Of a stretch of 56,127 bases of DNA, positions 3 through 21,750 are shown piece after piece. Position 1 is the stretch's first letter, and the number at the start of each line of letters is the position of its first letter. The DNA lies in IMG/VR virus record IMGVR_UViG_3300017956_005956, positions 1-56,127 of that record. One strand, 5' to 3'. The notes beneath the pieces are model-generated. The model was not told where the DNA came from and ran no database searches. It saw nothing but the letters and a program-made list of their open reading frames with translations. This stretch comes from a virus. Its lineage: Duplodnaviria > Caudoviricetes. Made by a program: the position numbers and the translations under genes.

Positions 3-212
3 AAAACAGTTACAACTTGGCACGAACTTATAGTTGGAAATGTTGAAGAAAAATCTAATGCGTTTTTTGTAACCAACCCTTATCTAACTAAAATATTACA
101 CGAAGAATCATTCATTGAAGATATTCCTATTATTATTCGTGTAGATCAATGGCATAGTGCAGACAATTACTCAAAAAAAGATAGAGTGATTGCTGGCTTA
201 TTTATTAATTAG
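3..212 (+). CDS. 3' end of a gene truncated by the window edge; possible cupin/2OG-Fe(II) oxygenase-like C-terminus
   Basis: Open frame from base 3 translates KTVTTWHEL...PYIIRVDQWHSADNYSKKDRVIAGLFIN* (TAG 210-212). The H-x3-N...R pattern resembles the distal His strand of the neighbouring oxygenases. Its stop overlaps the stop of the convergent minus-strand gene. Confidence 0.5.
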   Translation, partial: KTVTTWHELIVGNVEEKSNAFFVTNPYLTKILHEESFIEDIPIIIRVDQWHSADNYSKKDRVIAGLFIN

Positions 213-898
213 CTAAAACTTGGAAATTTATATTTTAATTTTTTCCTTTCTAATAAGTTATATGCATTAACATTCAAAGCTATAAAAAATTGATACACAT
301 TGTCAAACGCATTTCCAGTATGCATTAAACTTGTATCCATTAGATATAATCTTCCAGATTCAATATTATCAATAATTTTGTAACCTTTAGTGGTATCGTT
401 ACCGTTGTAATCATAATAATGTCTTAAATCTTGTTTAGTTGCATCAGATGTTCCCCATAGTCGTAAAATTTTGCTAGGTAACCAAGTATCAACATGTGGC
501 ATAAAATATGCGTCTTTACCCCAGTATAATACACAGGATCGTATCATATATTCTTTTAATTCGTTAATGACATCAAAACAAGAACAATCTAACAATTCTG
601 TAGGAACATTAAAGTCTTGATCACTATACTTACTATTAGGATTAGCATCACACCATTGATCTAAAGGATAACAACATGGTTCTGGATTGTTTCGTAAATC
701 GCCATTTAAATTTGTTAAAGGAATACCAAACCTAGGAACGTGCATATGCTTTTCTCCCCAACGTCTAAATGCTAATCTATAATCTTGTATTTCTTTACCA
801 AACAATTCTATATCTATTTTATAATCTAAAGGAATTATAAATTTTCCTTCGTGTAAAGTATTATATTCCTCTATACTTAAACTATCTTCCTTCTCCAT
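209..898 (-). CDS. Putative 2OG-Fe(II) dioxygenase / double-stranded beta-helix enzyme
   Basis: HxD...H triad pattern: FMPHVDTW ... LYLMDTSLMHTG. ORF track starts at 919; the ATG at 898 is the more likely start. Confidence 0.6.
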   Translation of the reverse strand: MEKEDSLSIEEYNTLHEGKFIIPLDYKIDIELFGKEIQDYRLAFRRWGEKHMHVPRFGIPLTNLNGDLRNNPEPCCYPLDQWCDANPNSKYSDQDFNVPTELLDCSCFDVINELKEYMIRSCVLYWGKDAYFMPHVDTWLPSKILRLWGTSDATKQDLRHYYDYNGNDTTKGYKIIDNIESGRLYLMDTSLMHTGNAFDNVYQFFIALNVNAYNLLERKKLKYKFPSFS

Positions 899-1457
899 AC
901 TCTCTTTCTTTACAAGCACCGCACTCTTTGCAAGGTTTATTTCCTGCTACAGGTTCATCACAAGTAAATGTCAAATTATATAGCTCAACCAAATTATTTT
1001 TTTTATACAAATTCACAATGTCTTTTTTGTCTATGTTTATAAAAGGAGCATATATTGATTTATTATGCATCCACACACTCTTTTTGCCTTTGCTAGACCT
1101 AGGATCATACTTAGGACCATCCCATTGCATATGAGGAGGGTTAGCATTTACCCCAAAACAAGTTACATATCCATTTTTGTATTCATTATACATAATTTCT
1201 AAATATTTTTCATTTTCATTTTTGTCTTCGATATAATTTATAATATGGTCAATATTTAAATTACTAGTTTTGTTAATACACCATTGTATAACATTGTTAA
1301 CAGGACGTAACATATGGTAATTTGTTCTTCTTTCAACAATCGTAAAAATATGTGTCTTTGTGTTTGGTTGCTGACTTAACAAAAAATATAGCAACAAAGA
1401 ACTTTCTACTCCGCCTGAAAACCATATATTCTTTGGTTCATAAAATTTTTTTATCAT
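882..1457 (-). CDS. QueC-like PP-loop ATP pyrophosphatase
   Basis: N-terminal PP-loop WFSGGVESS (SGGxDS variant), APFINIDKKDIV, and C-terminal Zn-type motif TFTC...PCKECGACKERE as in the QueC family. Shorter than canonical QueC and the VPxRN motif is not seen. Confidence 0.7.
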   Translation of the reverse strand: MIKKFYEPKNIWFSGGVESSLLLYFLLSQQPNTKTHIFTIVERRTNYHMLRPVNNVIQWCINKTSNLNIDHIINYIEDKNENEKYLEIMYNEYKNGYVTCFGVNANPPHMQWDGPKYDPRSSKGKKSVWMHNKSIYAPFINIDKKDIVNLYKKNNLVELYNLTFTCDEPVAGNKPCKECGACKEREYGEGR

Positions 1458-1972
1458 TAATTATTTATATCTGTACAGCCTACCATATGAACCCTAGGGC
1501 TATGGTAAGCATTTACAAATGTATGTAATTTTGTTGTATCAACTAAATAAACTTTTCCTTCTTCTAAATGATAATGTTTTTTGTAGTCAGGAAAATAAAA
1601 AAAACAATTTTCATTTGTAAAAATTGGTATGTGCAGTCGTTTAGTCATATCTTTATGTAATTTGTAACAGGTTTTATACTCTAATCGCAGAATCCTTGTC
1701 CGATACAAATTAAAATGTTTTATAATACCTACAAATTCACTATTTACAAATTTTTCATGTAACTCAGCAAAATCCTTTTCACATGTATTATTATCATATT
1801 CTGTTAAAGATTCTAAACCGTCATAAAGCGCCCATGGATTGCACGTACCTTTCCTATGCTGTACAGAAAATCCTCCAAATCTGAATGAAATAGATTTATG
1901 AATATTAGCTTCAGTGAGTTTTTGCAACTCATGCAAATTTACATCAAAATCTAATTGCTCAACTAATTCCAT
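1457..1972 (-). CDS. Aspartyl/asparaginyl beta-hydroxylase-like 2OG-Fe(II) oxygenase
   Basis: RTRILRL...CYKLHKD...RLHIPIFTN...VDTTKLHTFVN...RVHMVG: HxD...H triad with the R-x-H-I-P and H-x3-N-x4-R-x-H motifs typical of this family. Confidence 0.75.
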   Translation of the reverse strand: MELVEQLDFDVNLHELQKLTEANIHKSISFRFGGFSVQHRKGTCNPWALYDGLESLTEYDNNTCEKDFAELHEKFVNSEFVGIIKHFNLYRTRILRLEYKTCYKLHKDMTKRLHIPIFTNENCFFYFPDYKKHYHLEEGKVYLVDTTKLHTFVNAYHSPRVHMVGCTDINN

Positions 1973-3080
1973 TTAGCCTCATTTTAGGAATTTTACTATC
2001 AGCACTTGAAACACAACTGTCGGTAATACAAATTCCTGGTTTATCAAATAATTTAAATCCAGTTTCAATATTTCCTAAAGGAACATCATGGCAGCTATAA
2101 CTTCTCTTTACGCTTCCGTCAGGTTCCCTAATTATTATACCTTGAAACCCTGCATTACAGCTCCATCCTTTAAACTTATTAAAATTAAAAGCATTAAATC
2201 TTTCTGCTTGATCCATATACCATTTTTTTCCATCTTTATCAGTAAATTCTACTTGCATATGCCATGGAACACCTGCATCATTCTTACCCATTATTCCAGG
2301 ATTAATATCGTATGATGGCTTTGGTCGATCTTGCCACTTACGCTTAGATTCTGTGTAGGCACGCTGCGGCATTCCATTCCATAATTTTTTTAATTGTTCA
2401 TCTGTATACCCATCAACAACACGACTAGCAGTAGGATCGCTCTGTGGTTTTAGTGTTACATTTATTCCTTGTTCATGAAAAAATAACGCATTTTCCCAAT
2501 CTCTATCAAACCATTCTGGCACCATTACTTGATTAATTGTAATTTGTACATCGTTTTCTTGACAAAGTATTAGCTTATCTGCAAATTCTTGCATTTGTTC
2601 TTTTGTGCATACATGTTCAGTATGCAAACTTGCAGTAATACTTGCCCTATGGAATGGTTTTACATATTCAACGTACTGTTTAAACCATTCCATTGATCTA
2701 GAACAATTACTAGTCATGTGTATGCTTGTATAATTTGTATTAGGCACATCATCTGCGAGATATTTTAAAATATCTAAATATCCTGGATGGAATGTAGGTT
2801 CACCACCAGACAAACTAAAATGGAAACTATTAAATCCATTATTCCTAGCCTGCTTCTTTATTTCATCTATAGTTAATAGACATAATTTTGTAGGCCTGTG
2901 ATCTTTTGTATTTGATCTTGCATATGGCCAACAATAAGAACAGCGATAATTACAATACCTACCCAATAGCCACGAAACTGTAAAAAGATCTCTATATAGT
3001 AATGTTCTTTGTCCAACTTGAACTAAGTTATTAAATGGTATTTTAGTAAAATCATAGTTGGACCATTTTAAATCATTCAT
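1959..3080 (-). CDS. Radical SAM protein with C-terminal Cys-containing extension
   Basis: CNYRCSYC (CX3CX2C), SLSGGEPT, C-terminal WSCNAG...SYSC...CITDSC. Confidence 0.9.
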   Translation of the reverse strand: MNDLKWSNYDFTKIPFNNLVQVGQRTLLYRDLFTVSWLLGRYCNYRCSYCWPYARSNTKDHRPTKLCLLTIDEIKKQARNNGFNSFHFSLSGGEPTFHPGYLDILKYLADDVPNTNYTSIHMTSNCSRSMEWFKQYVEYVKPFHRASITASLHTEHVCTKEQMQEFADKLILCQENDVQITINQVMVPEWFDRDWENALFFHEQGINVTLKPQSDPTASRVVDGYTDEQLKKLWNGMPQRAYTESKRKWQDRPKPSYDINPGIMGKNDAGVPWHMQVEFTDKDGKKWYMDQAERFNAFNFNKFKGWSCNAGFQGIIIREPDGSVKRSYSCHDVPLGNIETGFKLFDKPGICITDSCVSSADSKIPKMRLNGIS

Positions 3081-4561
3081 TCTAAGTATTTTTTAAATTT
3101 AGGCGATAAGTCTAACAAATTTGTTTCTTTAACTTTATCATAGGCTATTGTTTGCCTTTTAAAAATATCTAATAATTCTTTTCTTGTTGGCAAAGGATAA
3201 TCATCTAGTATGGGCCATTTTGTTCTATCCGTTGTTCCGGTATGTTTTATAAGTAGTTCTTTTGCTGCTGCATTTGCTGGTACTCTTGGATTATTATTAT
3301 ATCTCCAAAAACCTTCGCCTAGCGGAACATCTAACAAAACTTCAAATGGTTGTATTAATTTTTTATATGCATGTTTACTTTTCCTATTTAATTCATACCA
3401 CGGTTTTGCCTTAGGATCATGCTTATCTATTTTATAAAACTTTTTTATTTTATTTAATTCATTCCTAAACCATTCTTTATCATCGTCGTCTAGTAATGAT
3501 GGGCAAAGCCAATCTTTATTTCGTATTCGCATTACATTACACGGTCCGCTATTTCCTACATTATAATAATTATGCTGCCAGTCCTCTATAAACCAAGGTA
3601 ACCATTGATCTACAGTTAATGCATTATACATTTGAAAGACTAAATTAATGCCAATATACGATTCAGTTGGAACATTTCGTATTTGTTCTAAATTTGTTCT
3701 ACATTTTTCCCAATCGGCTGGATCTCTGATATATTCAAAAGTTTTACCAGTTCCTTCTAAAGAAATTGTTAAACTAATTTTTTTAAATTTAGATAATAAA
3801 TCAAAATATCTATCTGTAAGAGTAGCATTTGTAGTCATGTTTAATGTTACTTCTTTTGCTTTTCCGGAATCAACTAAAAATTTTAAAATTTTAACAACAC
3901 CTTTGTCGGCTAACGGTTCACCTCCTAATAATTTTATATATTTGACATGGGTTAAATCTAATCCTTCTTCTATAATTTTACTAGTCTTTTCTCCGTCGTA
4001 TGCAGGGTAGCTAGATGTTCCAAAAAATTCCATTAATTCTGGATTTTTTTCTACATCGTCATTGATTTTTGAACTGTTAACTGTTGTACACATCCTACAT
4101 GTCAAATTACATAAATTACTAGGTCGCAAATCTAAATCATATGGAGTTTCTAAATTATTGCCTTTAACTACATCTAATTCCTTATAATTATCTTTTAACC
4201 AATCATAATTCCTTTGCAGATGTGTAAATCTATCACTACGCATGCCTCTTTTTTCTCTATCTTGACATGTTTCACAACCCTTTGTAGGCCATTCATTTTT
4301 TAAAAAACTTTCTCTAATTTTTTGCCATTTATCACCCTCCCAAATTCTTTTAAGTTCTTGATTAAAATACTTAGGATTTTTAAAAAGTTCATCTTTATTT
4401 AAAGTTTCATAATCAGAAAAGACGCAGCAAGGTCTAACTTTACCATCAGAAAAATTACTGTACAAAGATGTAAACGGAACTGGACAAAAATTATATTCTT
4501 TAAGTTTTTCTGGATTTTTATCAAAATCAATCCATTCTTCTAAATCTTTAATATTTTTCAT
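3077..4561 (-). CDS. Radical SAM protein with N-terminal twitch/SPASM-like domain
   Basis: FCPVPF...VRPCC...CETC at the N-terminus, CNLTCRMC, LLGGEPL, TTNAT. Start placed at ATG 4561 (ATGA overlap with the upstream stop); ORF track start is 4600. Confidence 0.9.
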   Translation of the reverse strand: MKNIKDLEEWIDFDKNPEKLKEYNFCPVPFTSLYSNFSDGKVRPCCVFSDYETLNKDELFKNPKYFNQELKRIWEGDKWQKIRESFLKNEWPTKGCETCQDREKRGMRSDRFTHLQRNYDWLKDNYKELDVVKGNNLETPYDLDLRPSNLCNLTCRMCTTVNSSKINDDVEKNPELMEFFGTSSYPAYDGEKTSKIIEEGLDLTHVKYIKLLGGEPLADKGVVKILKFLVDSGKAKEVTLNMTTNATLTDRYFDLLSKFKKISLTISLEGTGKTFEYIRDPADWEKCRTNLEQIRNVPTESYIGINLVFQMYNALTVDQWLPWFIEDWQHNYYNVGNSGPCNVMRIRNKDWLCPSLLDDDDKEWFRNELNKIKKFYKIDKHDPKAKPWYELNRKSKHAYKKLIQPFEVLLDVPLGEGFWRYNNNPRVPANAAAKELLIKHTGTTDRTKWPILDDYPLPTRKELLDIFKRQTIAYDKVKETNLLDLSPKFKKYLE

Positions 4562-5661
4562 AGGTCTATAGTATTCCTTATTATTGTATGTTCGCCACAC
4601 CTACGTGTACATTCTTTTAATCTTTTATTTGTTTTAGATGTAAAATTATTATTAAAACTTTCTTCTAAATCATTTTTAAAAAACGGATGAGAAATAATTT
4701 CTTCTAGTGTGTAATAATTTAAATTATTCCAATTTTTATCATATCTACATCCAAATTTATCAACCCATTCATTCCATTTTTTACTATCGCCAAATTCAAC
4801 ATACGCACCCGAATGATGACAACACATATAAACTAAGCCATCAAAAGACAAATACATTTTTTGTTTTTTATACCATTCGCATTCAACTGCCCCATTGCTG
4901 TAATACTGATTAATGTCGCCATTATATTTGGTATCTACTAATTTTTCTAAATTAGACAATCCTTCTTTTGCCATATTTTCAAATACAGGAACAACTTTTT
5001 TATCTACATTTTTTTCATAAAGTTTTAATATCTCAACATTTAATCTTTTTGTTTTTATAAAAATTTTTTTAAATCCTAACTCTTTTGAAATTTCTTTAGC
5101 TTTTTCTACTAAATGATGGTTATGCTGAAAACTTAGATATTGCCAATGTGCATTTCCGCCTGCATTAATAAATGCTTTTGCATTTTCTATAACACGGTCA
5201 TAAACTACATTCTTTCTATATATTTCATGAGATTCATTATCTATTCCATCAATTCCAAATTCTACATAGCTATCCTTACGAAAATTATTTTTTAAATATG
5301 TTCCTAATTTACTCCACCAACTAATGTTTCTTATACCCCCATTAGTATGAATTTGTATTTGAATTTTTTCTTCTCTATTTACAGTACTGCTAATTAAATA
5401 ATCTAACAAATTAAAAAAATTAGGATATAAAATAGGATCTCCGAAATTTCCATTAAATTGTATTGTTTTAATTCCTTGCAAAACTTTATCATTAAAAAAT
5501 TTTTTAAAAATTTTTTCTGCCAAAATACCTTTTGGTCCTACAGGTAATAATGGATTTACTGTTTCGCCTTTATCATTTCTGGCACACTGCAAACACATAG
5601 AATTACAATTACTTGTAACTTCAACCATTACAGTGCTTAAATTAGATATATCTATTATCAT
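4558..5661 (-). CDS. Radical SAM protein with C-terminal SPASM/twitch-like domain
   Basis: CNSMCLQC, GNFGDP, HTNGG, FGIDG; C-terminal VECEW...MCCH...CTRRCG. Confidence 0.9.
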   Translation of the reverse strand: MIIDISNLSTVMVEVTSNCNSMCLQCARNDKGETVNPLLPVGPKGILAEKIFKKFFNDKVLQGIKTIQFNGNFGDPILYPNFFNLLDYLISSTVNREEKIQIQIHTNGGIRNISWWSKLGTYLKNNFRKDSYVEFGIDGIDNESHEIYRKNVVYDRVIENAKAFINAGGNAHWQYLSFQHNHHLVEKAKEISKELGFKKIFIKTKRLNVEILKLYEKNVDKKVVPVFENMAKEGLSNLEKLVDTKYNGDINQYYSNGAVECEWYKKQKMYLSFDGLVYMCCHHSGAYVEFGDSKKWNEWVDKFGCRYDKNWNNLNYYTLEEIISHPFFKNDLEESFNNNFTSKTNKRLKECTRRCGEHTIIRNTIDL

Positions 5662-7058
5662 TCTAAATATTTTACTAATTGTGGTACAAGTTTACGAATA
5701 TCGGTTCCTCTAATTTTATCAAGAAGTAAAGTCTTTTCTTTAAATTCGATTAAATTCTGATTTTTATTTTGTGATCTAAATTTTTTATTTAAATCTGTTT
5801 CAATGGGATAAGAATTATCTATCTCTACTTTAAATTCATCTTCGATACTGTTAAACGGCCATTGATGCTCGGTCGGAATGTTATTTTCATAAACAAACTC
5901 TTTCCATTGACTACGAATAAAATCTTTATCCTTGTCATCAAGCATACTAATACTCATATACCTAGGTTCAACAAGCCTATGAGGATGAGTAAAATTTGTT
6001 TTTATTTTACGTGGATCATTTTTATATTGATATGCAATATCATATGTAAACTTCATCCACTCTTTTATTTGGAATATATTATACATAGACAACACAGAAT
6101 TAAATCCAAACCCTATTGTATTATCCATTTTTATTAATCTATGGACAATATCAACAGTTTCGCTCCATTTTGTTCCATATCTCACATATTCTGCAAGATC
6201 TCCGACTGCGTCTATACTTAATCTCCATTCTATTCCTGCAAAATGTTGTAACACATCTTGCATTCTTGTAGGTAACTGACTACAATTTGTGATAATTTTT
6301 AAATATGTATCTTTAGCAGTATTACTTTCAACAAATTTTTGGAAAATTCTATAAACATTTTTATCAATTAAAGATTCGCCTCCGCTTATTTTAAGCCATT
6401 TTACTCCGCTTAAATCAAATGTTTTATATATATTATATTCATCCGAATCCCAGTCTGGCGGCTGACGTAAAACATTTCCACTACGACTTTCTTGGTCAAA
6501 ATAAGAACCTTGCAGTTCTGGATTTTGATCTATTTCTTTTTGCCACTGATTACTCCAAATGCTTGAACAAGTCATGCATTTAAAATTACAAGTATTTCCT
6601 GGTCGTAAATCTACATCAATAGGTTTTTTAAAATCCTTTGTGCCTTCATTAACATCCCAAGTAAGATTTCCTAATTCTTTATCTTTAAAATGATGTATAT
6701 ACTTATGGATGTACCCAATTCTAACACTATCAAACCAATTTTGGTTTTCTTCTGCAACTTTACAATAGTTACATGCTTTTGGCCACTTACCTTCTAAAAA
6801 ATCTTTTCTAATATCAACAAGTGTTTCACCTGTTCCTGGATAATGATTCCATGCTTCTAAATTACCATTCCAAAAATCTTGCTGTATTTCGGATAATTGC
6901 TTTCCGTCTTCTAATGGTTTTTTTAATCTACTAACTGCAGGAGTCATACAACAAGGCCGCAATGCCTTGTTATTCAAATTAATGTAGGCATTTAAAAAAG
7001 GTGCAGGGCAAAATATTTTGTTTTTCCATTCTTTTGCTACTTCTTCAATGTTAGCCAT
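5658..7058 (-). CDS. Radical SAM protein with N-terminal twitch/SPASM-like domain
   Basis: FCPAPF...RPCC...CNYC, CNFKCMTC, ISGGESL, LSIDA. Confidence 0.9.
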   Translation of the reverse strand: MANIEEVAKEWKNKIFCPAPFLNAYINLNNKALRPCCMTPAVSRLKKPLEDGKQLSEIQQDFWNGNLEAWNHYPGTGETLVDIRKDFLEGKWPKACNYCKVAEENQNWFDSVRIGYIHKYIHHFKDKELGNLTWDVNEGTKDFKKPIDVDLRPGNTCNFKCMTCSSIWSNQWQKEIDQNPELQGSYFDQESRSGNVLRQPPDWDSDEYNIYKTFDLSGVKWLKISGGESLIDKNVYRIFQKFVESNTAKDTYLKIITNCSQLPTRMQDVLQHFAGIEWRLSIDAVGDLAEYVRYGTKWSETVDIVHRLIKMDNTIGFGFNSVLSMYNIFQIKEWMKFTYDIAYQYKNDPRKIKTNFTHPHRLVEPRYMSISMLDDKDKDFIRSQWKEFVYENNIPTEHQWPFNSIEDEFKVEIDNSYPIETDLNKKFRSQNKNQNLIEFKEKTLLLDKIRGTDIRKLVPQLVKYLE

Positions 7059-8241
7059 TTATATACCTTACTATATCTTTATGTAAAACTTTATATGTTT
7101 GCTGCCGATATTTATCTAAAATTGCAGTTGATCTTTTTAGAGCTGATAACTTAGACTCGTCTGTTTCTTTACAAATATCTAAATACTTTCTAAAATCATT
7201 TACTAAACTCTTTTCTCTTGTAATTTCTTTTTCAAATTTAGAAAAAGCAGAAAATACTAAATCATATGGTAAGTATTTAATATTATATTCACTATCCAAA
7301 GGTCTAACAAAATAGTCTATAAAAAAGCTGAATTGATGCGGATTATGCCTATAATATTGTATTTTTAAATCATTACACCATTGCCATAATTCTCCTACAT
7401 TAAAAACATTGTAAACTTGTCCTAAACAACTTACACCTATATTAATATGTTCATATGAAGCACAAAACTTTACTAAATTTTGTATTCTTTTTTCTAAAAT
7501 TTTCCACTTATAAGGAAATCTTATATAATCATATGTATTACCAATTCCATCAACACTAATTCTAATTTTAACTTTTTTAAATTTAACAATTTTATCTAAT
7601 AAAGCATCATTAAATTTTGTTCCATTAGTTGTAAAATCTAAAACAATATTTTTACATTTTCCTGATTCAACAAAATAATTGACTAAATCTAACCATCTTG
7701 TCTGCATAGTAGGTTCGCCTCCTGTTGTTTTAAATTTATAAAGATCCAACAACTTTAATTGGTTGTCAATGTCAATTGGTAATCTTGCTTTATCGTCTTC
7801 CCATAAAGACATTCCTTTCCAATGATCTGGTAACTCGCTTCCTAAAGATTTTATTGTTTCATTAATTTTATTACTACTAGTTGTGCTACACATTCTACAT
7901 TCTAAATTACATTCATTAGAAAATTTTAAGTCTACACTTTTCACTCTTGGCTTGTCTACAAAATTATCTACAAAAACTTTAAATGTTTCATTATAAGCCT
8001 GACGCTGACTACGCATTCCTTTTTCTTCTGTTATTTTACAAATATTACATTGCGAAGGCCAATTTCCTTGCCTAAATTGATCTCTTATATCTTCCATTAT
8101 GCTAGACTTCATCATATCTTCCATAGATATGTCTTTTGCATCAAGATTTAAAGGCGTATCTGAATGACAACAAAGTTTATACTTATGGTTTGGATTTATT
8201 GTTAAATGCATCCAAGGTAACACACAAAAATTATTTTTCAT
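7051..8241 (-). CDS. Radical SAM protein with N-terminal twitch/SPASM-like domain
   Basis: FCVLPW...KLCC...CNIC, CNLECRMC, TGGEPT, TTNGT, ISVDG. Confidence 0.9.
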   Translation of the reverse strand: MKNNFCVLPWMHLTINPNHKYKLCCHSDTPLNLDAKDISMEDMMKSSIMEDIRDQFRQGNWPSQCNICKITEEKGMRSQRQAYNETFKVFVDNFVDKPRVKSVDLKFSNECNLECRMCSTTSSNKINETIKSLGSELPDHWKGMSLWEDDKARLPIDIDNQLKLLDLYKFKTTGGEPTMQTRWLDLVNYFVESGKCKNIVLDFTTNGTKFNDALLDKIVKFKKVKIRISVDGIGNTYDYIRFPYKWKILEKRIQNLVKFCASYEHINIGVSCLGQVYNVFNVGELWQWCNDLKIQYYRHNPHQFSFFIDYFVRPLDSEYNIKYLPYDLVFSAFSKFEKEITREKSLVNDFRKYLDICKETDESKLSALKRSTAILDKYRQQTYKVLHKDIVRYING

Positions 8242-13747: not shown

Positions 13748-14337
13748 GCCTTAATTTCTCCATTATTTTTACGATGAGAATATATTGTTCTAAATCTAGC
13801 AAATCCTTCGTTAATTGACATTTCACGTGCTTGATTTAACAAATGCTCATTATGGTTAAAAACAATAAATTGCCAGGTTGCTCTTCCACCGGCTTTGATA
13901 AATGCACGCCAATTATTTTGTACTTTTTTAAAATTTGATTTTACCCTATATTTTTGTAATGATTCTTGGTCAATACCGTCTATACCAAAAAAAACTGATA
14001 TTTGCCTATTTCCTAACTCTTTCCAAAATTCTTCGGTTTTTGTAGATCCGTTACTTGCAACATTTACACTTGTAAAATCTCTAAAATAATCTACTATCTC
14101 TATAAATTCAGGATGAGTAGTAGGTTCATCAACCGATCCACAAAAATTAATAATTTTCAGATTAGGAAGATATCCAGGATATATCCATTTTTTTAAATCA
14201 TATAATTTTATGTAAGACTTATTTAAAATATGGCTTATCTGCTTATTCATCTCTTGCCTTAAACAGCCAGGGCATGCAATATTACAATACGAAGTTAATT
14301 CAATATCAATCCATTCTATACTTTCTTTTGTCCACAT
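13744..14337 (-). CDS. Radical SAM core domain only (partner of the downstream SPASM-like ORF)
   Basis: CNIACPGC, CGSVDEPT, SNGS, FGIDG, WQFIVFNHNEH; colinear with the N-terminal ~190 aa of 15756..16823. Confidence 0.85.
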   Translation of the reverse strand: MWTKESIEWIDIELTSYCNIACPGCLRQEMNKQISHILNKSYIKLYDLKKWIYPGYLPNLKIINFCGSVDEPTTHPEFIEIVDYFRDFTSVNVASNGSTKTEEFWKELGNRQISVFFGIDGIDQESLQKYRVKSNFKKVQNNWRAFIKAGGRATWQFIVFNHNEHLLNQAREMSINEGFARFRTIYSHRKNNGEIKA

Positions 14338-15737
14338 TACAAAAAAATCTCTTTCATATCTGGAAAAATATCATTAAAATTTAATTTTCTTTGTACATCG
14401 CATTGTTTAATAAATTCTTGCATTTCAGGCAACCTAATACTCCAATCTTCTGATTCCATAAACTGTAACATTCCTTCTAGCCTACTAATTCCATAACTTG
14501 CATTTCTCCAATCAGTGTAAGAAATTTTATCTTTATGCCATCTAGGAATTCCTAACTTCCAATTATCCTCCCACCAAGGATAAAACTCTTCATATTTTTT
14601 GCGACATTTTTCTTTAAACCATTTTGGCAATATTTTAACGTTTAGATGTGGAGGATGATAAACAAAATGATAGTTTACACCTCCTGCACCAAACGGCCAC
14701 ATATTTACTTTGTTAAATTTTTGTTGTAATTTCCATTTTATAAAATCAGGTATGTAAAATATATTCAAGGCTTGGACTGCACAAGCTATTGTAACCTCTA
14801 CATTATTACTAGTTTCATTATCTAACAAATGAAATACTTCTTCAGTCCTATTCCATTGACTAGGATATCTAATATAATCATTCATTTCCTTAATACTATC
14901 AACACTATAATGAAATCTTACTAATTTAAATTCTTTCCATAGATCAAATAAATCATTTCTCCATTCTACACCATTAGAATTGTAACGTAATTCTAAATCT
15001 TTTGCATAACCCTGTTTTATACATTGTTCTAATATATCATAATGTTCTTCAATAATTAAGCTTTCGCCTCCTGCAAAATATATTTGCTGCATATTAGGAA
15101 TTTGTTCGTAAAACTGCTCCCAAAAAATAGGATTGTTTTTATGCCAATTATAACTACTTCCATTATAGCTACCTTTATCTTTCCATTGCATAGTTTCTTT
15201 TAAACTAGCATTTTCTATTTTTGGATATATTGCTTGCCAATCAGTTATCCAACCAGAGCTATCATGCGGGCTACACATTACACAAGCTAGTTGACATTTT
15301 GTTCCAAACCTTAAATCGATATATGTCAGTTTAGGAGGTACACTTCCGTCCTCATTTGTATCTACAATTAATTTATCAACATCGACTCTTTTGCTCCAAT
15401 ACCGTGTTTCCCACATTCTTTTACTGTTATGTCCTGCTGCTTCTTCCTTAAAACATTTTGTACAACTAGGTGGTATTTCTCCATTTAACATTTGTTTTCG
15501 TACATTTTTCATATATGTACTGTTCCAACTACTTACAAAATCACTGACATTTAAATTATTAGGTTTTCCGTCTTCAGTTTTTAAAATACCAACTTGTCCT
15601 CCATGTTCTCTGTCATTAGTAGGTCCTACAGAACTTGCATTTGCTGTGCAACAAACTCGCATACTTCCATCGGGTCTAGTGCTTAAATGAACCCAAGGTA
15701 AAATACAAAATGTAGATTTTTTATCGTCTAAATTCAT
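14337..15737 (-). CDS. Radical SAM protein with N-terminal twitch/SPASM-like domain
   Basis: FCILPW...RVCC...CTKC, CQLACVMC, FAGGESL, YNSNG. Confidence 0.9.
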   Translation of the reverse strand: MNLDDKKSTFCILPWVHLSTRPDGSMRVCCTANASSVGPTNDREHGGQVGILKTEDGKPNNLNVSDFVSSWNSTYMKNVRKQMLNGEIPPSCTKCFKEEAAGHNSKRMWETRYWSKRVDVDKLIVDTNEDGSVPPKLTYIDLRFGTKCQLACVMCSPHDSSGWITDWQAIYPKIENASLKETMQWKDKGSYNGSSYNWHKNNPIFWEQFYEQIPNMQQIYFAGGESLIIEEHYDILEQCIKQGYAKDLELRYNSNGVEWRNDLFDLWKEFKLVRFHYSVDSIKEMNDYIRYPSQWNRTEEVFHLLDNETSNNVEVTIACAVQALNIFYIPDFIKWKLQQKFNKVNMWPFGAGGVNYHFVYHPPHLNVKILPKWFKEKCRKKYEEFYPWWEDNWKLGIPRWHKDKISYTDWRNASYGISRLEGMLQFMESEDWSIRLPEMQEFIKQCDVQRKLNFNDIFPDMKEIFL

Positions 15738-15740: not shown

Positions 15741-15748
15741 GTATTTAT
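15741..15748 (-). promoter_or_regulatory. Putative T4-type late promoter box (ATAAATAC)
   Basis: Minus strand reads AATAAATACGGT-ATG in the short intergenic gap before 15737; resembles the T4 late -10 box TATAAATA. Confidence 0.55.
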
Positions 15749-15755: not shown

Positions 15756-16823
15756 TTATGTAAATTGTGCTGAATAAGGATCAAACTCTTTGCCGCATTT
15801 AATTGCACAAACTTTTAACTTTCCATCTAGACAGCTTTTTTTTGTCCAACTATTTTCTATATCTTTAAAAATATTTGATTCAAAAACTTTTTGTAAACCA
15901 TTTTTTGCATTAATTGCGGATTTGTTTTCTATAAAATTCCAAACCTGTTCTATTTTAGGATCTTTGTGCCACCATTTATACATCCTGCCAGCTGTCCAAC
16001 AACAAGGTAGTGCTAAACCTTCTGCAGTTATAAACAAACTACCTTCGTTCTTTACTTTACAATTTATTGGAACTACATCATAATAATTGTCCATAGTGCC
16101 ATAATTTTCTAATATAGTAGGTAACTTTTTTACAGCAGTATTTTGAAATTCGTCTTTAGGTTTTGCAAGCTCTGCAGTCTTTTTACCTTTTTTATTAACT
16201 GCTTGATGTGTGTCCTTTACTTCAACATTTGCCGTTACAAATCGACCAGTTTTTTTCTTAATAAATTTTTCAAAACCCCATTCTTTACTAAGACGCTCCG
16301 CTTCTTCTACTTGATGTTGATTATGATCAAAAATTAAAAAATCCCAACGTCCTCTACCACCTGCACTTGTAAAACTACGCATTGATCTTTCTACGTTTTC
16401 CCAAACTACACCTTGTCTGTAGATATGATTAGTATCTTGCAACCCATCTACACTAAAAATTACAGCACCCATCCTGCCATAAATCTTAGCAAGCTCTTGC
16501 CACCAATTCTCATCTCTAGCACCTGCATTTGTATTCATACTTAACCACATTTTAGAATTATTCCTCCTAAAATATTCAAAAACCTCTAATGTATCACGAG
16601 CAACAATTGGATCGCCTAAATTACCGCACATATACATTGTAGATAATTGCGAAATAAAATCCGGTGTGAATATATTTTTTACATCATTAATTGTTAATTC
16701 ATCTAAGTTTATGTGAGGATTTAATGCACCCCCATTTTGATTCCTATCACACATAGGACATGAAGCTTGACAATTTTGAGTTATTTCTAAATGAATTGTT
16801 TTTATATCTCTATAATTATACAT
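15756..16823 (-). CDS. Radical SAM protein with C-terminal SPASM/twitch-like domain
   Basis: CQASCPMC, CGNLGDP, NTNAG, FSVDG; C-terminal INCKV...LPCCW...CAIKCG. Confidence 0.9.
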   Translation of the reverse strand: MYNYRDIKTIHLEITQNCQASCPMCDRNQNGGALNPHINLDELTINDVKNIFTPDFISQLSTMYMCGNLGDPIVARDTLEVFEYFRRNNSKMWLSMNTNAGARDENWWQELAKIYGRMGAVIFSVDGLQDTNHIYRQGVVWENVERSMRSFTSAGGRGRWDFLIFDHNQHQVEEAERLSKEWGFEKFIKKKTGRFVTANVEVKDTHQAVNKKGKKTAELAKPKDEFQNTAVKKLPTILENYGTMDNYYDVVPINCKVKNEGSLFITAEGLALPCCWTAGRMYKWWHKDPKIEQVWNFIENKSAINAKNGLQKVFESNIFKDIENSWTKKSCLDGKLKVCAIKCGKEFDPYSAQFT

Positions 16824-17043
16824 TTTCTGTTAGTAACTTAATGTCTTTTCCTGGTCCTACTTCGCTAGGCAATCCACCATACTCTTTCATATACCATTCT
16901 ATAACAGTTTTATACCAATTTTGACTATCGTGATGTGCTTGTTTATTAAATTGATATATATTATTATTTGTTGCTTCTATTGTAGCTAACGCACGAGAAC
17001 TTTCTTTTTGTAGCTTTCTTAGACTAAAATTTTCTAAATTCAT
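16816..17043 (-). CDS. Small hypothetical protein (75 aa)
   Basis: Fills the gap between two enzyme genes, with an ATGA overlap upstream and an 8-nt overlap downstream. Confidence 0.65.
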   Translation of the reverse strand: MNLENFSLRKLQKESSRALATIEATNNNIYQFNKQAHHDSQNWYKTVIEWYMKEYGGLPSEVGPGKDIKLLTENV

Positions 17044-19586
17044 GCATACCCTATTAGCATAACACGTTTATAGCCTTTAAGTTGTAATTCTCCTTCGTAT
17101 AATATTTTTTCCATAGGAAATACTTTTTTCATATGATCAATACTATGTACACAGTTTACATGTTCAGGTATTCCGAAAAAATTATTATTTTGGATTACAA
17201 CCAAAGGTTTTTTTGTCCATTTTTTAAAACGTATTTGATTAAACCATTCGGTTGACATGTGCTCTGAACTTGTATTGATTATTAAATCTGGTAAAAATTT
17301 TTCTATATATATTTCTGCAGTTTTAAAATTTTCAATTTCCCATTCGTAGCCATTTTCATGTAAGGTAAGATTATTAATATCTGCATTTATTGCTTTAACT
17401 TTATGATCCTCTAATCTACGTAAATTAAAATTGTAATCACTTTCTAAACAACAATCTTTGTCAAGTTCTATATTTCTAAATTTTGCAAAGGTAATTTCAT
17501 TCATGCTTTGATTTCCAAATAAATCAATTAACTGTCCATACCACCCTGCTAATAAAACTATATTATCAAAATTTTTGTTAATTTTAGATAATTCATTAAC
17601 CAACCAAATTTTACTACGCATTTGACTACGACTAAGTGCATCTGATAAAATCTTTAAATTTTTTCCTTTTTTTATAAAATCTCTCACAAATCTAAAATAT
17701 CTTGTATTTTTTCCATCATTATTAGTTAAACAATCTAAAATTAAATCGTCGATCAAAATTTCTTGCTTTTCAGAATTATACTTAGCTTTAGGCAAAAAAT
17801 GACTTATAATAGCACTTACTGGATCTTGAGCATAAGCAATATTCAACACAAAATCTATATTTTCTGCAACATTTTTTTCAGACTTATATAAGCAGTACTC
17901 GTGCAAGCCATGTAAAAATTCAATATTTTTATTTTCTATTTTAGGAAAATCTATACTATCTACTTTCACATTGTTAAATTCTTGAAATTTAATTTTTAAC
18001 CAATCAAAATCATTTATTTTTGATAACTCTTCAATATCTCCAGAATTTTTAATGCCATATTCTTTACCTTGATTAGCACCTTTAATTGCATATTCTCCAA
18101 ATAGCCTATCCTTGCCATAATCACTGCACCAACGTTCTAATCTTTCATCTGTTTCTTTTTGCTTTTGTCTATCAATTACTGCACTTGCTAACTTGCAACA
18201 CTCTCTAAACGCACTCCGCCAAGTAGTAAATTCATCTGTATTGAAACGTGTATAATTACTTACAGCGTCCATTTTCTTAAAATGTCTACTTATACTTGTA
18301 GTCATATCAGGTTTTGATAAATCCATATTACGTGTCATATCTGTAGGTAATAATTTTACACCACCATACCCATATTCTAAATCATTTATAGGATTTTTGC
18401 TACGCCAGACATGTACAAACTGTTTTTCAGTATCAGGAACTACATAATCAAAACAAAAATCTTCTACTATTTCAGCATCACCATCTACTACCCACATCAT
18501 ATCAGTTTCGCATATCTCTGCGGCTGCTATATGGGCTTGATGTATACCTTTTACTTTATGAATCCTTTTTACATTTGTAAATCTGTTTTTTAATTTATTG
18601 TAATTTTCTGCACCATTTAATTCGTTATATGTGATCATTACAATATCGTAGCTTGCTGTTTCTTTATCAGTAGCTAACCAAGGATGCTTTGGTCTAACGC
18701 TATTTGTAAATGTAGTTTTATGAAATTTACTTTGATCTATGCTTAACGGCAAGCTAGAAATAGGTATATCTAAATTTTGTTTAATTTTATCTCCAACATG
18801 TTGTGCGAGATCAACAGCATTATCTTCATCTATACCTGCTAATTCGTCATTCCATAAAGAATTTAAATAAGCAAAATCTCTAACATTTATAAAATTCCAA
18901 TCGGTACACATAGTCTTGTACAAACCCTGCCTAGCACCTAATATAGCATATATTCCATTTTTTACATCTTGTCCTGTCATACACCATATGTATAATCTAT
19001 GCAAATTTTTCCAATGTATTTTATTAAATTCTTCTATAGACGGTTTAACACCTTCTAATAAACACATTTTAACACCTTCTCTAAACCCAGCTCGCCATGC
19101 TTGTTGAGGTGTAAAGTTATTTTCTACAACACTCATAGACTTTTGCATTGTAATATATTCTATATCCCAGCAAAAATCAACTTGTGCATGTATATTATCC
19201 GGATCAGCATTCTCGTGCGTTTTTATATCAAGCAAGGTTTGCTTGTCCCAACATTTAATACCGCCGTTGCCATAAATTAAGCCATTTATAATATTCCTTC
19301 CTGGCCAACTAATTACATTTTTTGTTATATCAACATTCTTTTTAAATCTAATTTGCTCATGTAAAAATTCTATATCTACAATGTTATCGCCATCAATTAT
19401 TACTAACCTATCTGTTTCACTTATTTTAGCACATTCTTTATGAGCAGAATCTGATCCATAAACGTTATGAACTCGTTTTGCCCATGGTACTTTTAATAAT
19501 AAATCTGCATAATTTTTTTCAGCATTTGGCTCATCATATGAAAGATATATAAAATCTAATTCTGATATTTTTAAAATATTATTCAT
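17040..19586 (-). CDS. Fusion of two tandem GT-A glycosyltransferase-like domains and a C-terminal class I SAM-dependent methyltransferase-like domain
   Basis: Duplicated domain with DxD motifs (IIDGD, VVDGD), YGxGGxK and WRxxFRE. C-terminal SKIWL...LLAGWYG...NIELD...ADIN...LIINTSSEHM resembles methyltransferase motifs. Confidence 0.7.
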   Translation of the reverse strand: MNNILKISELDFIYLSYDEPNAEKNYADLLLKVPWAKRVHNVYGSDSAHKECAKISETDRLVIIDGDNIVDIEFLHEQIRFKKNVDITKNVISWPGRNIINGLIYGNGGIKCWDKQTLLDIKTHENADPDNIHAQVDFCWDIEYITMQKSMSVVENNFTPQQAWRAGFREGVKMCLLEGVKPSIEEFNKIHWKNLHRLYIWCMTGQDVKNGIYAILGARQGLYKTMCTDWNFINVRDFAYLNSLWNDELAGIDEDNAVDLAQHVGDKIKQNLDIPISSLPLSIDQSKFHKTTFTNSVRPKHPWLATDKETASYDIVMITYNELNGAENYNKLKNRFTNVKRIHKVKGIHQAHIAAAEICETDMMWVVDGDAEIVEDFCFDYVVPDTEKQFVHVWRSKNPINDLEYGYGGVKLLPTDMTRNMDLSKPDMTTSISRHFKKMDAVSNYTRFNTDEFTTWRSAFRECCKLASAVIDRQKQKETDERLERWCSDYGKDRLFGEYAIKGANQGKEYGIKNSGDIEELSKINDFDWLKIKFQEFNNVKVDSIDFPKIENKNIEFLHGLHEYCLYKSEKNVAENIDFVLNIAYAQDPVSAIISHFLPKAKYNSEKQEILIDDLILDCLTNNDGKNTRYFRFVRDFIKKGKNLKILSDALSRSQMRSKIWLVNELSKINKNFDNIVLLAGWYGQLIDLFGNQSMNEITFAKFRNIELDKDCCLESDYNFNLRRLEDHKVKAINADINNLTLHENGYEWEIENFKTAEIYIEKFLPDLIINTSSEHMSTEWFNQIRFKKWTKKPLVVIQNNNFFGIPEHVNCVHSIDHMKKVFPMEKILYEGELQLKGYKRVMLIGYA

Positions 19587-20115
19587 TATAAATTACGTAA
19601 TTAAATATTTGCATTGTATTTTTTATAAAAATATTAATTAAGTTTGGGTTTTTTTCTTTATCAAATAAGAAAGGTATTTCTATTTCTTTTTGTGTCTTAA
19701 CTTTAATTAAATTTATTGAAAGCAATCTTATTAAATTATTAGGATTATCTATTTCACAAATACTTATATGAGCATCTGTTGGTAATTGTTCTAATGAGAA
19801 ATCAGCATTATATTTGATAATCCATAATTTTTTTTTAAAATTGTTAATTATTGTAAAAGTAGATTTTATATCTGTTACAGGAATTTTTTTTAATCTTATA
19901 CTAGTATCGTAAAAATTTTTTTTATTAGTATTAATTACAACGTGCCTAGATAAAATTTTATCAAATATAACTTTGTAATTGCATAAATTACCTTTTGCAT
20001 TTTCTATACCATTTAAATCTTCTTTTTCTAAAACAATATAATTATTATGAGTTGGCGGAACATTACTAAATTGTGTGACAAAAAAAGTATTCTTATTATA
20101 GGAAATATAAAACAT
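19579..20115 (-). CDS. Hypothetical protein
   Basis: 178-aa ORF translationally coupled on both sides; no recognisable motif. Confidence 0.6.
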   Translation of the reverse strand: MFYISYNKNTFFVTQFSNVPPTHNNYIVLEKEDLNGIENAKGNLCNYKVIFDKILSRHVVINTNKKNFYDTSIRLKKIPVTDIKSTFTIINNFKKKLWIIKYNADFSLEQLPTDAHISICEIDNPNNLIRLLSINLIKVKTQKEIEIPFLFDKEKNPNLINIFIKNTMQIFNYVIYNE

Positions 20116-20945
20116 TACTGCTTACTTTCAAATTTAGCAATTAAATCGTCAGATAAAAAATCATTATTAACATAATGAAAAATTCCATGTTGTTTGTAAT
20201 TTCCAACAAAAAAATTAAAATTATTATCTAAATAAAATTCTATGTTACTCAACCACGATTCTCCATTAAAATATCTCCAGCCTTGACTTTTTGTTTTCAT
20301 GTGAACAAAATGGAAAAAATTTTTATTAAAATTTTTAATATCTAACATTTGAAATACAATTGCAGTTATAACATCCATACTAGGATTTTTAGGCTGTTTT
20401 TCTTTTAAAAATATATCATAAAAATTCTTCCAATTATTTGCTACCAAGTTAATTAAACTAAAAAAATGTTCACTTTTGTCTGTTTTTTTAAAATAATAAA
20501 TTCCAGAGTAAACATTTGGCAATTTATTTGCCTTAAATGCTTTTCTGTAAACACAATTTATTATTTTTTCTCCCCTATAGTTATATACTGACATTGGATA
20601 ATAAAAATCATATGTATCGATAAAATCCCATACATTATTTAAATTATCTAAAATAAGTGTGTCACTATCTAAAACAATTGTAGCACGATATGGAGTATAA
20701 TCATATATTCTAGCCCTATTTAGAGTATGATATCTATTTTCCGGCATAGCATCTATTGTAATTACATTTTCAAACAACTTCAAAATTTTTTGGCTTATTA
20801 AATTATTTTTTGTTGTAATTAATGAAACTGGCTGTTTATTTTTATATTTTATAGTTAATGCTGCTAGATATGCTTGTTTTATATGTTCACTTCCGTCAGC
20901 ATAAATTACAAATCCCCTATCAGTTTCCACAAATACATCTTTCAA
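20115..20945 (-). CDS. Putative nucleotide-diphospho-sugar transferase (GT-A fold)
   Basis: RGFVIYA N-terminal strand, YDYTPYRATIVLDSD (DxD), late HY motif; paralogous to the upstream ORF. Start may be GTG at 20930. Confidence 0.65.
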   Translation of the reverse strand: MKDVFVETDRGFVIYADGSEHIKQAYLAALTIKYKNKQPVSLITTKNNLISQKILKLFENVITIDAMPENRYHTLNRARIYDYTPYRATIVLDSDTLILDNLNNVWDFIDTYDFYYPMSVYNYRGEKIINCVYRKAFKANKLPNVYSGIYYFKKTDKSEHFFSLINLVANNWKNFYDIFLKEKQPKNPSMDVITAIVFQMLDIKNFNKNFFHFVHMKTKSQGWRYFNGESWLSNIEFYLDNNFNFFVGNYKQHGIFHYVNNDFLSDDLIAKFESKQ

Positions 20946-21750
20946 GACTAAATTTATTCATAATATGAACATTTAAATTAGATACATTAGCAAAATAAAG
21001 ATTACTATTATTTTTTTCCTTTTCAATTAAAAATGTTGCGTAATTATCATTTAATTTAAAACAAAATTCTCTATCAGTTATGTAAAATAATTTTCCTGGC
21101 ATTTTGTTTACAAACGATCCTTGTTTATATCCATTTATAATATGTATTGCAATACTAAAAGCAAAATCATTTCTAAAAAATGTTTGACTTATACCAAATA
21201 AATTTTTATAATGATTCCAATATTCCTCTACATGAGCTACTAAATTAAAAAAAATTTCATTTTCAATACATTTTCTAAAAAAAATAACTGTTGCCCAATA
21301 AAATTTTATACCTTTATCATTTATATATTTGTAATCTTGATATTCTTTTAACCCACTCAAAGGAAAACATTCGTCATACATCAGTAAATTGTTTACATTA
21401 CTAAAACAATTCTTAAATACATCATTATACAAAACAACATCTGTATCAATTACAATAGTTTCATCATACGGAGTCAAAGCGTATGACTGCGATCTGCAAT
21501 AATTTTTAAATTCTAAAGATTCAAAACTTTCACCATCTCTATATGGTCGATTTTTTACTTTATGATTATAATCTAATTTAATTATTTTATCAAAAGAATT
21601 TTTGCAATTATCTAAATCTATACTGTTATCAGTTACAATAGATACTGGTAAATTTAGTTTGTCTTTTACATTTTTACTTAAAAATTTAGCTTGTTCAATA
21701 TAATTAATAGATTTATTATTAAAAGCAAAAACTAAAAAGCCTTTAGTCAT
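20920..21750 (-). CDS. Putative nucleotide-diphospho-sugar transferase (GT-A fold)
   Basis: KGFLVFA, YALTPYDETIVIDTD (DxD), FRNDFAFSIA, HIMNK. Confidence 0.65.
   Translation of the reverse strand: MTKGFLVFAFNNKSINYIEQAKFLSKNVKDKLNLPVSIVTDNSIDLDNCKNSFDKIIKLDYNHKVKNRPYRDGESFESLEFKNYCRSQSYALTPYDETIVIDTDVVLYNDVFKNCFSNVNNLLMYDECFPLSGLKEYQDYKYINDKGIKFYWATVIFFRKCIENEIFFNLVAHVEEYWNHYKNLFGISQTFFRNDFAFSIAIHIINGYKQGSFVNKMPGKLFYITDREFCFKLNDNYATFLIEKEKNNSNLYFANVSNLNVHIMNKFSLERCICGN

Follow-up and report, generated by a model that had tools for sequence, protein, structure and literature searches.

A radical SAM-rich glycosyltransferase cassette behind the tail fibre genes of an uncultured marine jumbo phage: a candidate system for virion glycan assembly and tailoring

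Introduction

Virion glycosylation is part of the biology of Che8-type mycobacteriophages, and A064R of PBCV-1 joins two glycosyltransferase domains to a methyltransferase domain, an architecture that we liken to that of a protein described below. These two systems and the fibril systems of the Megavirinae have in common that the virus encodes soluble transferases beside its structural genes. To our knowledge, the virion glycosylation systems of mycobacteriophages and giant viruses contain no radical S-adenosylmethionine (SAM) enzymes. Here we analyze a 56,127-base stretch of viral DNA (Duplodnaviria; Caudoviricetes), which is the entire IMG/VR record for its source virus, IMGVR_UViG_3300017956_005956, and is called the window hereafter. 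Positions 209-21750 hold a cassette that likewise carries virus-encoded, soluble transferases beside structural genes. Unlike the systems above, eight of its 21 genes are for radical SAM enzymes, which vary among relatives.

Che8-type virion glycosylation is mentioned in a passage of PMC12619734. Radical SAM cassettes beside the fibre genes of marine T4-like phages are already in print, and the relevant passages give neither a function nor a mechanism for them (PMC7029224; PMC5332604). As described in a section of PMC7029224, the "host recognition cluster" of pelagimyophages and cyanomyophages resembles the window, with a giant structural protein, fibres, and cassettes of transferases and radical SAM enzymes in a variable region. 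An excerpt of Nishimura et al. 2017 (PMC5332604) reports a T4-like marine genome with 12 radical SAM genes. According to these passages the phages are T4-like, with genomes of 130-190 kb, whereas the window is of the Rak2/Atu_ph07 jumbo type; the cassettes were compared by description. A literature search that included phage virion glycosylation found no paper on the cassette of this jumbo lineage.

The original prediction, made from the letters of the window, proposed that the cassette builds and tailors a glycan on the virion. We give a probability of about 0.4 to the reading that it is a late-expressed, wholly cytoplasmic system of glycan assembly and tailoring, with a virion surface protein as acceptor. 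The cassette is best filed as a radical-SAM-rich variant of the virus-encoded glycosylation systems, with the virion as a candidate target.

Results

A cassette of overlapping genes follows the fibre genes

The cassette consists of 21 open reading frames (ORFs), all on the minus strand, as are all features described below unless another strand is given. Eighteen of the 20 junctions between them overlap and the other two are gaps of 2 and 18 nt, in agreement with the roughly 20 co-oriented, mostly overlapping genes of the original prediction. They encode eight radical SAM enzymes, two GT8-like transferases and one 848-amino-acid (aa) protein, GGM, with two GT-A domains and a methyltransferase domain. 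The rest includes two Asp/Arg-hydroxylase-like proteins and a tentative third, a QueC-like PP-loop ATPase and three near-orphan paralogues. Transcription runs from high to low coordinates, through the baseplate genes, a 5525-aa protein, a 204-aa protein, the fibre module, a 114-aa protein and then the cassette. From the baseplate genes through position 209 the coding strand stays the same, and the widest gap in the fibre region is 66 nt; the cassette thus follows the fibre genes uninterrupted, as had been claimed.

None of the cassette proteins contains a membrane segment (the top 19-residue Kyte-Doolittle mean is 1.63). Since a flippase, a polymerase and a lipid-carrier transferase are also missing, both synthesis and attachment of the product would take place in the cytoplasm. 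Because the cassette has no membrane protein, periplasmic modification of the Gtr-like kind was ruled out.

The final gene of the fibre module (22099-23076) encodes F325, a phage-only protein of 325 aa with TATAAATA upstream of its gene at 23095-23102. F325 has no Pfam or PHROG match. Its Ser+Thr share, 21.8%, is the maximum for the window, and it is present, and frequently doubled, in related loci. F325 is a candidate glycan acceptor. Between the fibre module and the transferases lies the gene of s114 (21747-22091), a conserved 114-aa protein without any family match, found in 79 of the 84 related loci sampled below and in Ralstonia phage RsoM2USA.

Four glycosyl-transfer domains and a methyltransferase domain

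The transferases come first in the cassette. GT8a (20920-21750) and GT8b (20115-20945), of 276 aa each, were assigned by profile matches as GT8-like GT-A transferases with a DxD motif; GT8b also matches phrog_1903 (1.2e-7). A profile of the pair built from 14 homologues (A4) matches glycogenin-1, a GT8 enzyme, at E 3e-4, through the DxD motif and over the first 100 positions only, and D102 and D104 of this motif are invariant in 14/14 sequences. Neither protein has a Pfam match at E<=0.01. The family counts at least 2570 proteins, and the best 120 of 2570 relatives carry no Pfam domain at all. The next gene, s178 (19579-20115), encodes a poorly conserved protein of 178 aa, with no family match and relatives in 2/84 loci at E<=1e-6.

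The domains of GGM (17040-19586) were assigned from an AlphaFold 2 model (mean predicted local distance difference test score, pLDDT, 82.9) compared by Foldseek. The model shows two GT-A domains (about 1-300 and 310-540), followed by a helical linker and, at about 650-848, a methyltransferase domain of class I. Its top PDB match is the chondroitin polymerase K4CP, which has two GT-A domains (8.7e-6); LH3, SunS, WrtF and ppGalNAc-T also match the GT-A parts, and NodS, Coq5, ChlM and other methyltransferases match the C-terminus (about 4e-4). The best BFVD matches are proteins of uncultured phages (8.6e-21); next come a "glycosyltransferase and methyltransferase domain protein" of Catovirus (1.5e-7) and, as a weak match, a Che8 glycosyltransferase (1.1e-3). 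GGM has no Pfam match, and searches of PDB sequences with the protein and with its profile yielded nothing usable. Thus, the four GT-A-like domains and the methyltransferase-like domain of the original prediction are supported by predicted fold and by profile, not by Pfam.

Metagenomes contain at least 1762 members of the 848-aa family, and a relative is encoded in 323 confirmed stretches of IMG/VR. In many relatives (loci L018, L117 and L120-L140, and RsoM2USA) the protein is split, and one or two radical SAM genes of the N-twitch or another type are inserted between its GT-A domains.

Radical SAM enzymes and the small protein s75

All eight radical SAM ORFs encode CxxxCxxC, which is invariant in alignment A5, and six of the eight reach the PF04055 gathering score of 29.5 bits, so that the number given in the original prediction stands. 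One ORF, 15756-16823, falls short of that score at 27.3 bits. Another, 5658-7058, has no Pfam match, yet scores 249 bits against NF033640 (N_Twi_rSAM), an uncharacterised NCBIfam subfamily whose twitch/SPASM-like, Cys-rich domain is N-terminal of the core. Among the eight NF033640 matches in the window at E<=0.001, four exceed the curated cut-off of 170 bits; the remaining four ORFs, at 26-47 bits, are non-members. The N-terminal cysteines, CxxxCxxC and a GGE motif are invariant across phage and bacterial members of the family. We know of no NF033640 member whose substrate is known. A literature search on the name and accession of the family found nothing specific.

In the direction of transcription, the conserved first radical SAM gene is rS_s (15756-16823), of the SPASM type and 43% identical to a Bacteriovoracaceae gene. 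It is followed by an N-twitch gene (14337-15737; NF033640, 413 bits) whose product is 51-63% identical to those of Bdellovibrionota genes, and by a split radical SAM gene (13436-14337) recognized by Pfam as a core (13744-14337) and a SPASM domain (13436-13747). The same two-piece pattern recurs in several relatives (e.g. L068, L069, L074, L080 and L082), and may therefore be a real two-gene form and not a frameshift. Beyond the hydroxylase and paralogue genes come two further N-twitch genes, 7051-8241 (265.7 bits) and 5658-7058, then a SPASM-type gene (4558-5661; PF04055 41.5 bits, SPASM 20.5 bits), a fourth N-twitch gene (3077-4600; 257 bits), with its SPASM domain N-terminal of the core, and a gene of the rS_c type (1959-3080; PF04055 50.9 bits), 61% identical to a Bacteriovoracaceae gene. 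The closest solved structures are SkfB, viperin, GDGT-MAS, BlsE and MoaA. These match over the common core only, and the substrates of the enzymes can thus not be read from sequence.

The ORF upstream of rS_s (16816-17043) encodes s75, a highly conserved protein of 75 aa found in 46/84 loci. Its mean column identity is 80%, evenly distributed along its length, and it has no Cys. Because SPASM and twitch enzymes often mature peptides, a conserved small ORF upstream of the first radical SAM gene could point to a system like those of peptides that are made on ribosomes and altered after translation (RiPPs), in which these enzymes would crosslink or alter a small precursor such as s75, or fibre proteins directly, and no glycan would be made. 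We consider this very unlikely. The even conservation of s75, its lack of Cys and the absence of a homologue from those bacterial loci in which the radical SAM genes recur all argue against a precursor peptide, no cassette protein matches a domain of the RiPP recognition element (RRE)/PqqD type, and the four transferase domains would be left unexplained. Membership in the RiPP maturation systems was rejected on these grounds, s75 having no variable core either. A complex prediction for rS_s with s75 scored 0.00 and gives no verdict.

The cassette stays with the fibre genes in related phages

The synteny sample comprised 84 distinct IMG/VR loci with a relative of the 848-aa protein, after five repeat contigs were dropped, and counts were taken where the fetched flank reaches. 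The conserved order is fibres, s114, two GT8-like genes, the 848-aa gene, s75 and radical SAM genes. The GT8-like pair lies upstream of the 848-aa gene in 73/73 loci with at least 3 kb of flank, radical SAM genes lie downstream in 32/32 loci with at least 4 kb, and two or more fibre-family genes are present in 60/60 loci with at least 7 kb. The linkage to tail genes is therefore kept in relatives, including the distant, cultured phage RsoM2USA. The number and kind of radical SAM genes differ: where at least 12 kb is available, counted from the first position of the 848-aa gene (22 loci), there are 4-8 of them, of which 2-5 are N-twitch genes. In three larger relatives (102-182 kb), every Radical_SAM match falls inside the cassette block. 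Much as in the window, the 182-kb relative ends its cassette with rS_c (83% identity), a QueC-like gene, a hydroxylase-like gene and a strand switch. All 84 loci belong to one lineage, and the counts thus indicate stability within that lineage, not independent origins.

Among 50,697 phage records, a single one has an 848-aa relative, that of RsoM2USA. This phage provides an independent case: behind a fibre-like gene, its mini-cassette consists of s114, two GT8-like genes, GT-A domain A, an N-twitch gene, GT-A domain B and a methyltransferase domain, and this N-twitch enzyme is the sole radical SAM gene of the complete genome. Vibrio phage K566 has a cluster of N-twitch-like genes near PagP-like and NAMPT genes.

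The original prediction also raised the co-variation of the cassette with fibre sequence. In 1081 pairs from 47 loci, rho was 0.34 for F325 with GT8a and 0.17 for F325 with GT8b, against 0.65 for GT8b with the 848-aa protein; there is no specific signal. In rate of divergence, GT8a, GT8b and s114 equal the fibres: their mean pairwise identities are 0.42-0.48, versus 0.68 for the N-terminal domain of the 848-aa protein. The GC content is 0.23 at 20001-22000, around the GT8-like pair, and at 8001-12000, in the three paralogues, against 0.26-0.34 elsewhere. These low-GC parts are also the least conserved among relatives, which suggests that they were replaced recently.

Bacterial counterparts are clustered in Bdellovibrionota

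Close relatives of the 14337-type enzyme were sought in bacteria, with one genome per species. Of the 28 loci obtained, 25 are from Bdellovibrionota (51-63% identity), one from a Dojkabacteria metagenome-assembled genome (MAG) and two from Flavobacteriales MAG contigs (77-78%). In one of the Flavobacteriales contigs, L021, the genes stand in the phage order (the last part of the 848-aa gene, then s75, rS_s, N-twitch and rS_c); it is therefore a fragment of a related phage. The two contigs reflect either mis-binning or a hint at the host.

The Bdellovibrionota loci contain the same three radical SAM types in clusters. In one member of the Bacteriovoracaceae, the chromosome encodes the three 848-aa domains as separate genes (39%, 40% and 31% identity), and the locus also holds three N-twitch genes and the rS_c and rS_s relatives mentioned above (61% and 43%). 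Their neighbours are four GT2 genes, a PMT_2/ArnT-like gene, an amine-oxidase/NAD_binding_8 flavoprotein and a short-chain dehydrogenase/reductase. Elsewhere in Bdellovibrionota, the loci further include a carbamoyltransferase and a QueC-like gene, along with a hydroxylase-paralogue fusion. These loci thus share with the cassette the three radical SAM types, the three 848-aa domains, the QueC-like gene and the hydroxylase-paralogue pairing. They differ from it in being chromosomal, beside housekeeping genes such as dnaG, and in containing GT2, PMT_2 and carbamoyltransferase genes. The phage proteins F325 and GT8a were not found in the five Bdellovibrionota genomes searched, nor were s114 and s75 among the ORFs of the fetched Bdellovibrionota loci.

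N-twitch matches over the cut-off occur in 27/121 sampled Bdellovibrionota genomes versus 0/14 control genomes, and five Bdellovibrionota genomes have 5-33 matches each. One Bdellovibrionia genome (G003:C1:745000-775000) has 14 N-twitch open frames in about 30 kb, together with hydroxylase-paralogue-like genes. In a quick tree, the phage copies of the 14337-type enzyme form one clade (Shimodaira-Hasegawa-like approximate likelihood ratio test, 100) among the Bdellovibrionota rows. The outgroup branches are very long and the root is unsafe; therefore no donor is claimed. No paper on radical SAM loci of this glycan type in Bdellovibrionota was found in the literature search.

Because the bacterial homologues lie amid glycosyltransferase-rich loci, sugar chemistry is favoured over peptide or DNA chemistry, and this gene context supports it as the best reading of the enzymes common to phage and Bdellovibrionota. 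The same loci bring in another possible target. GT2, PMT_2/ArnT-like and carbamoyltransferase genes are typical of surface glycans, and GT8 enzymes commonly act on lipopolysaccharide (LPS) cores. The cassette could thus serve to remodel the host envelope, by making or altering nucleotide sugars and adding them, on the cytoplasmic side of the membrane, to intermediates of LPS core, O-antigen or capsule; such a change could, for example, block superinfection or stop progeny from re-adsorbing to debris. Fibre-linked glycosyltransferases of pelagimyophages are read in this way in a passage of Zaragoza-Solas et al. 2020 (PMC7029224), where radical SAM cassettes are noted. Envelope remodelling is the main rival reading, and we regard it as somewhat unlikely for the window. 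Its cassette lacks membrane segments as well as any flippase, polymerase, ligase or polyprenyl-phosphate transferase, the promoter-like boxes described below suggest that it is expressed together with the tail genes, a late stage for superinfection exclusion, and the GT8-like genes of the priming type are phage-only.

Oxygenases, a QueC-like ATPase and three paralogues

Toward its distal end, the cassette carries genes that could diversify a virion glycan. Two Asp/Arg beta-hydroxylase-like 2-oxoglutarate (2OG) oxygenases (12774-13433 and 1457-1972) reach the PF05118 gathering score of 22.6 bits, with 55.9 and 31.8 bits. A third, of 236 aa (209-919), is the final gene of the cassette; it has no Pfam match and was assigned through a 31-residue motif match (pairwise E 3e-4) and a language-model lead. 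Of the three 2OG oxygenases of the original prediction, two are thus established as PF05118 matches and the third stays tentative.

The three paralogues (514, 500 and 526 aa; 8231-12823; GC 0.23) are 29-36% identical to one another, which bears out their earlier description as paralogues. A HMMER scan of 1.84 billion representatives gave 21 matches, three of them full-length and the others restricted to the C-terminal half. In viral contigs, the paralogue profile gave 151 pattern matches, none of them confirmed, and a word search gave one protein; against PDB sequences the profile yielded nothing usable. The structural model is poor (pLDDT 59.9) and has no Foldseek match at E<=0.001. As a weak lead, it suggests that the C-terminal half might be Rossmann-like and possibly methyltransferase-like. 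The hydroxylase gene 12774-13433 overlaps the first paralogue gene, and elsewhere a paralogue-like domain is fused to an Asp/Arg hydroxylase, for instance in an 808-aa protein of Pseudobdellovibrionaceae and in an Atlas cluster.

Within the fetched flanks, 0/84 loci contain any of the three paralogues, either hydroxylase or the 236-aa protein, and 5/84 contain the QueC-like gene. The hydroxylases and paralogues can therefore not be an obligatory first step, and the order of hydroxylation, glycosylation and radical tailoring put forward in the original prediction is a conjecture.

The QueC-like gene (882-1457), which has TATAAATA directly upstream at 1462-1469, encodes a PP-loop SGGxxS motif. 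Its product matches Pfam QueC with 39.7 bits, in the C-terminal part only, and the QueC equivalog TIGR00364 with 31 bits (cut-off 150.3), over the C-terminal 52 residues only. Judged by these matches it is a PP-loop ATPase with a QueC-like zinc tail and not QueC. The earlier assignment as a QueC-like ATPase thus holds and fails for QueC proper; a true QueC/7-deazaguanine pathway was ruled out by the distance to the equivalog cut-off.

This gene had been one reason to consider DNA hypermodification, in which the transferases and radical SAM enzymes would decorate the bases of phage DNA; phage transferases and a radical SAM isomerase occur in hypermodification pathways (Pyle et al. 2024, as cited in PMC12619734). 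The low equivalog score of the QueC-like protein speaks against this reading. Moreover, the cassette lies inside a late structural operon and its bacterial homologues in glycan loci. TGT/DpdA (PF01702) and thymidylate-synthase/hydroxymethylase (PF00303) were found in 0/5 relatives, a weak argument since these are fragments 18-51% complete. Altogether, modification of DNA appears highly improbable.

The mixture of radical SAM enzymes, transferases, a methyltransferase, oxygenases and a PP-loop, amide-forming ATPase also resembles sugar-antibiotic clusters. With every cassette protein soluble and a carbamoyltransferase in the bacterial loci, the product could be a small molecule derived from a nucleoside, an aminoglycoside or a sugar, for example one directed against defence systems or competitors. 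Neither an exporter nor a resistance gene nor a scaffold-forming enzyme was seen, and such a product would leave the constant position behind the fibres (60/60 loci) unexplained; we hold it to be improbable.

Promoter-like boxes

Late expression of the cassette is suggested by short boxes. TATAAATA occurs at 23095-23102(-) before F325 and again before the QueC-like gene, and the late-promoter-like ATAAATA lies at 15742-15748(-), in the 18-nt gap upstream of the N-twitch gene 14337-15737; the two boxes named in the original prediction are thus present. ATAAATA is also found at 199-205, directly past the stop of 209-919. The window contains 14 copies of ATAAATA against 72 expected, and four of TATAAATA against 22, each an approximately 5-fold depletion. 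The remaining ATAAATA sites are therefore unlikely to be due to chance. The depletion looks as if both motifs were counter-selected away from promoters. ATAAATA occurs 11 times on the minus strand, and at six of these sites a start codon follows within about 55 nt: 49498 (baseplate wedge), 29457 (204-aa protein), 23095 (F325), 15742 (N-twitch), 7109 and 1462 (QueC-like).

On the plus strand, a gp55-like gene for a late sigma factor begins at 55543, and the minus strand carries every gene from 55510 down to 209. The boxes and the sigma gene would fit T4-type late transcription of both fibres and cassette, from which the timing is inferred. In a metatranscriptome run (X1), short contigs at a depth of 2-3 are identical to pieces of fibre and cassette genes. 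As low-depth contigs of an RNA library, they prove neither transcription nor timing.

Fibre module and lineage of the phage

The protein of the baseplate wedge (46050-49481) shares 34-38% identity with its counterparts in jumbo phages Atu_ph07, Phosso, SCTP-2, RaK2 and of the 121Q and PA5oct types; 96 phage records match, 79 of them covering at least 80% of the query. The 204-aa structural protein (28825-29439) matches 93 jumbo phage records of the same type. CheckV puts the completeness of the window at about 15%, and its GC content ranges from 23 to 34%. The 182-kb relative is rated 51% complete, which places the genome at about 350 kb. By these protein matches, the window is a fragment of an uncultured, marine, Rak2/Atu_ph07-type jumbo myovirus of about that size. 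No tRNA genes were found in the window, and a megablast of positions 1-22000 against the phage collection gave no match.

Between the baseplate wedge gene and the fibre genes, a single ORF (29460-46037) encodes the 5525-aa protein, which is kept at 28-40% identity in more distant IMG/VR relatives. Its counterpart in RsoM2USA (ORF361, 2541 aa) is a confirmed virion protein according to the section consulted of the RsoM2USA paper. The other fibre-module genes are 26682-28823 (with a Collar domain), 24645-26675, 24298-24636, 23941-24231 and 23098-23922. The proteins of 24298-24636, 24645-26675 and 26682-28823 have a homologous N-terminal domain of about 100 aa (phrog_15511/14394), which is likely a baseplate-attachment module; the 112-aa ORF 24298-24636 is this domain by itself.

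Discussion

The reading with a probability of about 0.4 can be set out as a core and a variable part. The core, kept among relatives, would comprise s114, the two GT8-like transferases, GGM with its GT-A and methyltransferase domains, s75 and a single radical SAM enzyme of the SPASM type. Its four glycosyl-transfer domains, together with methylation, would be enough for a short, methyl-capped oligosaccharide. The variable part, with N-twitch and other radical SAM enzymes, Asp/Arg-hydroxylase-like proteins, Rossmann-like paralogues and the PP-loop ATPase, would use radical chemistry, hydroxylation and possibly carboxylate amidation to diversify this glycan or the nucleotide sugars from which it is made. 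The phage-specific GT8-like pair would prime, and the enzymes shared with Bdellovibrionota would elongate and tailor. The acceptor would be a virion surface protein of the same operon, the best candidate being the Ser/Thr-rich F325. A virion protein is favoured as acceptor because the phage-only parts (F325, s114 and the GT8-like pair) are found at the fibre end, evolve fast and have a low GC content. The analysis shows the gene content, the folds, the synteny, the bacterial homologues, the lack of membrane segments and the promoter-like boxes; the sugar substrates, the order of the steps, the late timing and, most of all, the virion acceptor are inferred.

Several observations weigh against a virion glycan. 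No glycan has been reported on any virion of this lineage. The sequences tie none of the cassette radical SAM enzymes to a sugar substrate, and the GT8 and GT2 Pfam models fail to match the phage transferases. The bacterial homologues, beside membrane-linked PMT_2 and GT2 genes, point to an ancestral use in cell-surface glycans. With the 848-aa family in only one of the phage records searched, that family is dispensable for this virion type, and since accessory genes commonly insert at the end of a tail operon, the position of the cassette alone is weak evidence. In the section consulted, the RsoM2USA paper describes 10 gel bands only and does not discuss ORFs 347-354. The four distant N-twitch-like genes of Vibrio phage K566 (positions 161548-168284 of its record) lie among non-structural genes. 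Finally, the co-variation of fibres and transferases is no stronger than relatedness explains, in both identity-to-window and pairwise tests.

A bolder version of the virion glycan reading, which we hold to be distinctly unlikely, is that the distal fibre bears a radical-SAM-tailored, strain-variable glycan that helps host recognition or shields the fibre. The predatory Bdellovibrionota, which likewise have to attach to other bacteria, would use the same rare sugar chemistry. The shared genes would then be an "attachment glycan" toolkit exchanged between phages and these predators, and NF033640 would be a new carbohydrate-modifying class.

The cassette is widespread, with at least 1762 proteins of the 848-aa family, at least 2570 GT8-like proteins and 323 IMG/VR stretches. 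If its product is a virion glycan, no earlier glycan on a phage particle would have been tailored by radical SAM enzymes, and host recognition in abundant marine jumbo phages would gain a new variable layer. Were the host envelope the target, the cassette would represent a large, unstudied system of surface remodelling. Either way, NF033640 gains a testable class of substrates, sugars, and a link to its expansion in Bdellovibrionota (27/121 versus 0/14 genomes).

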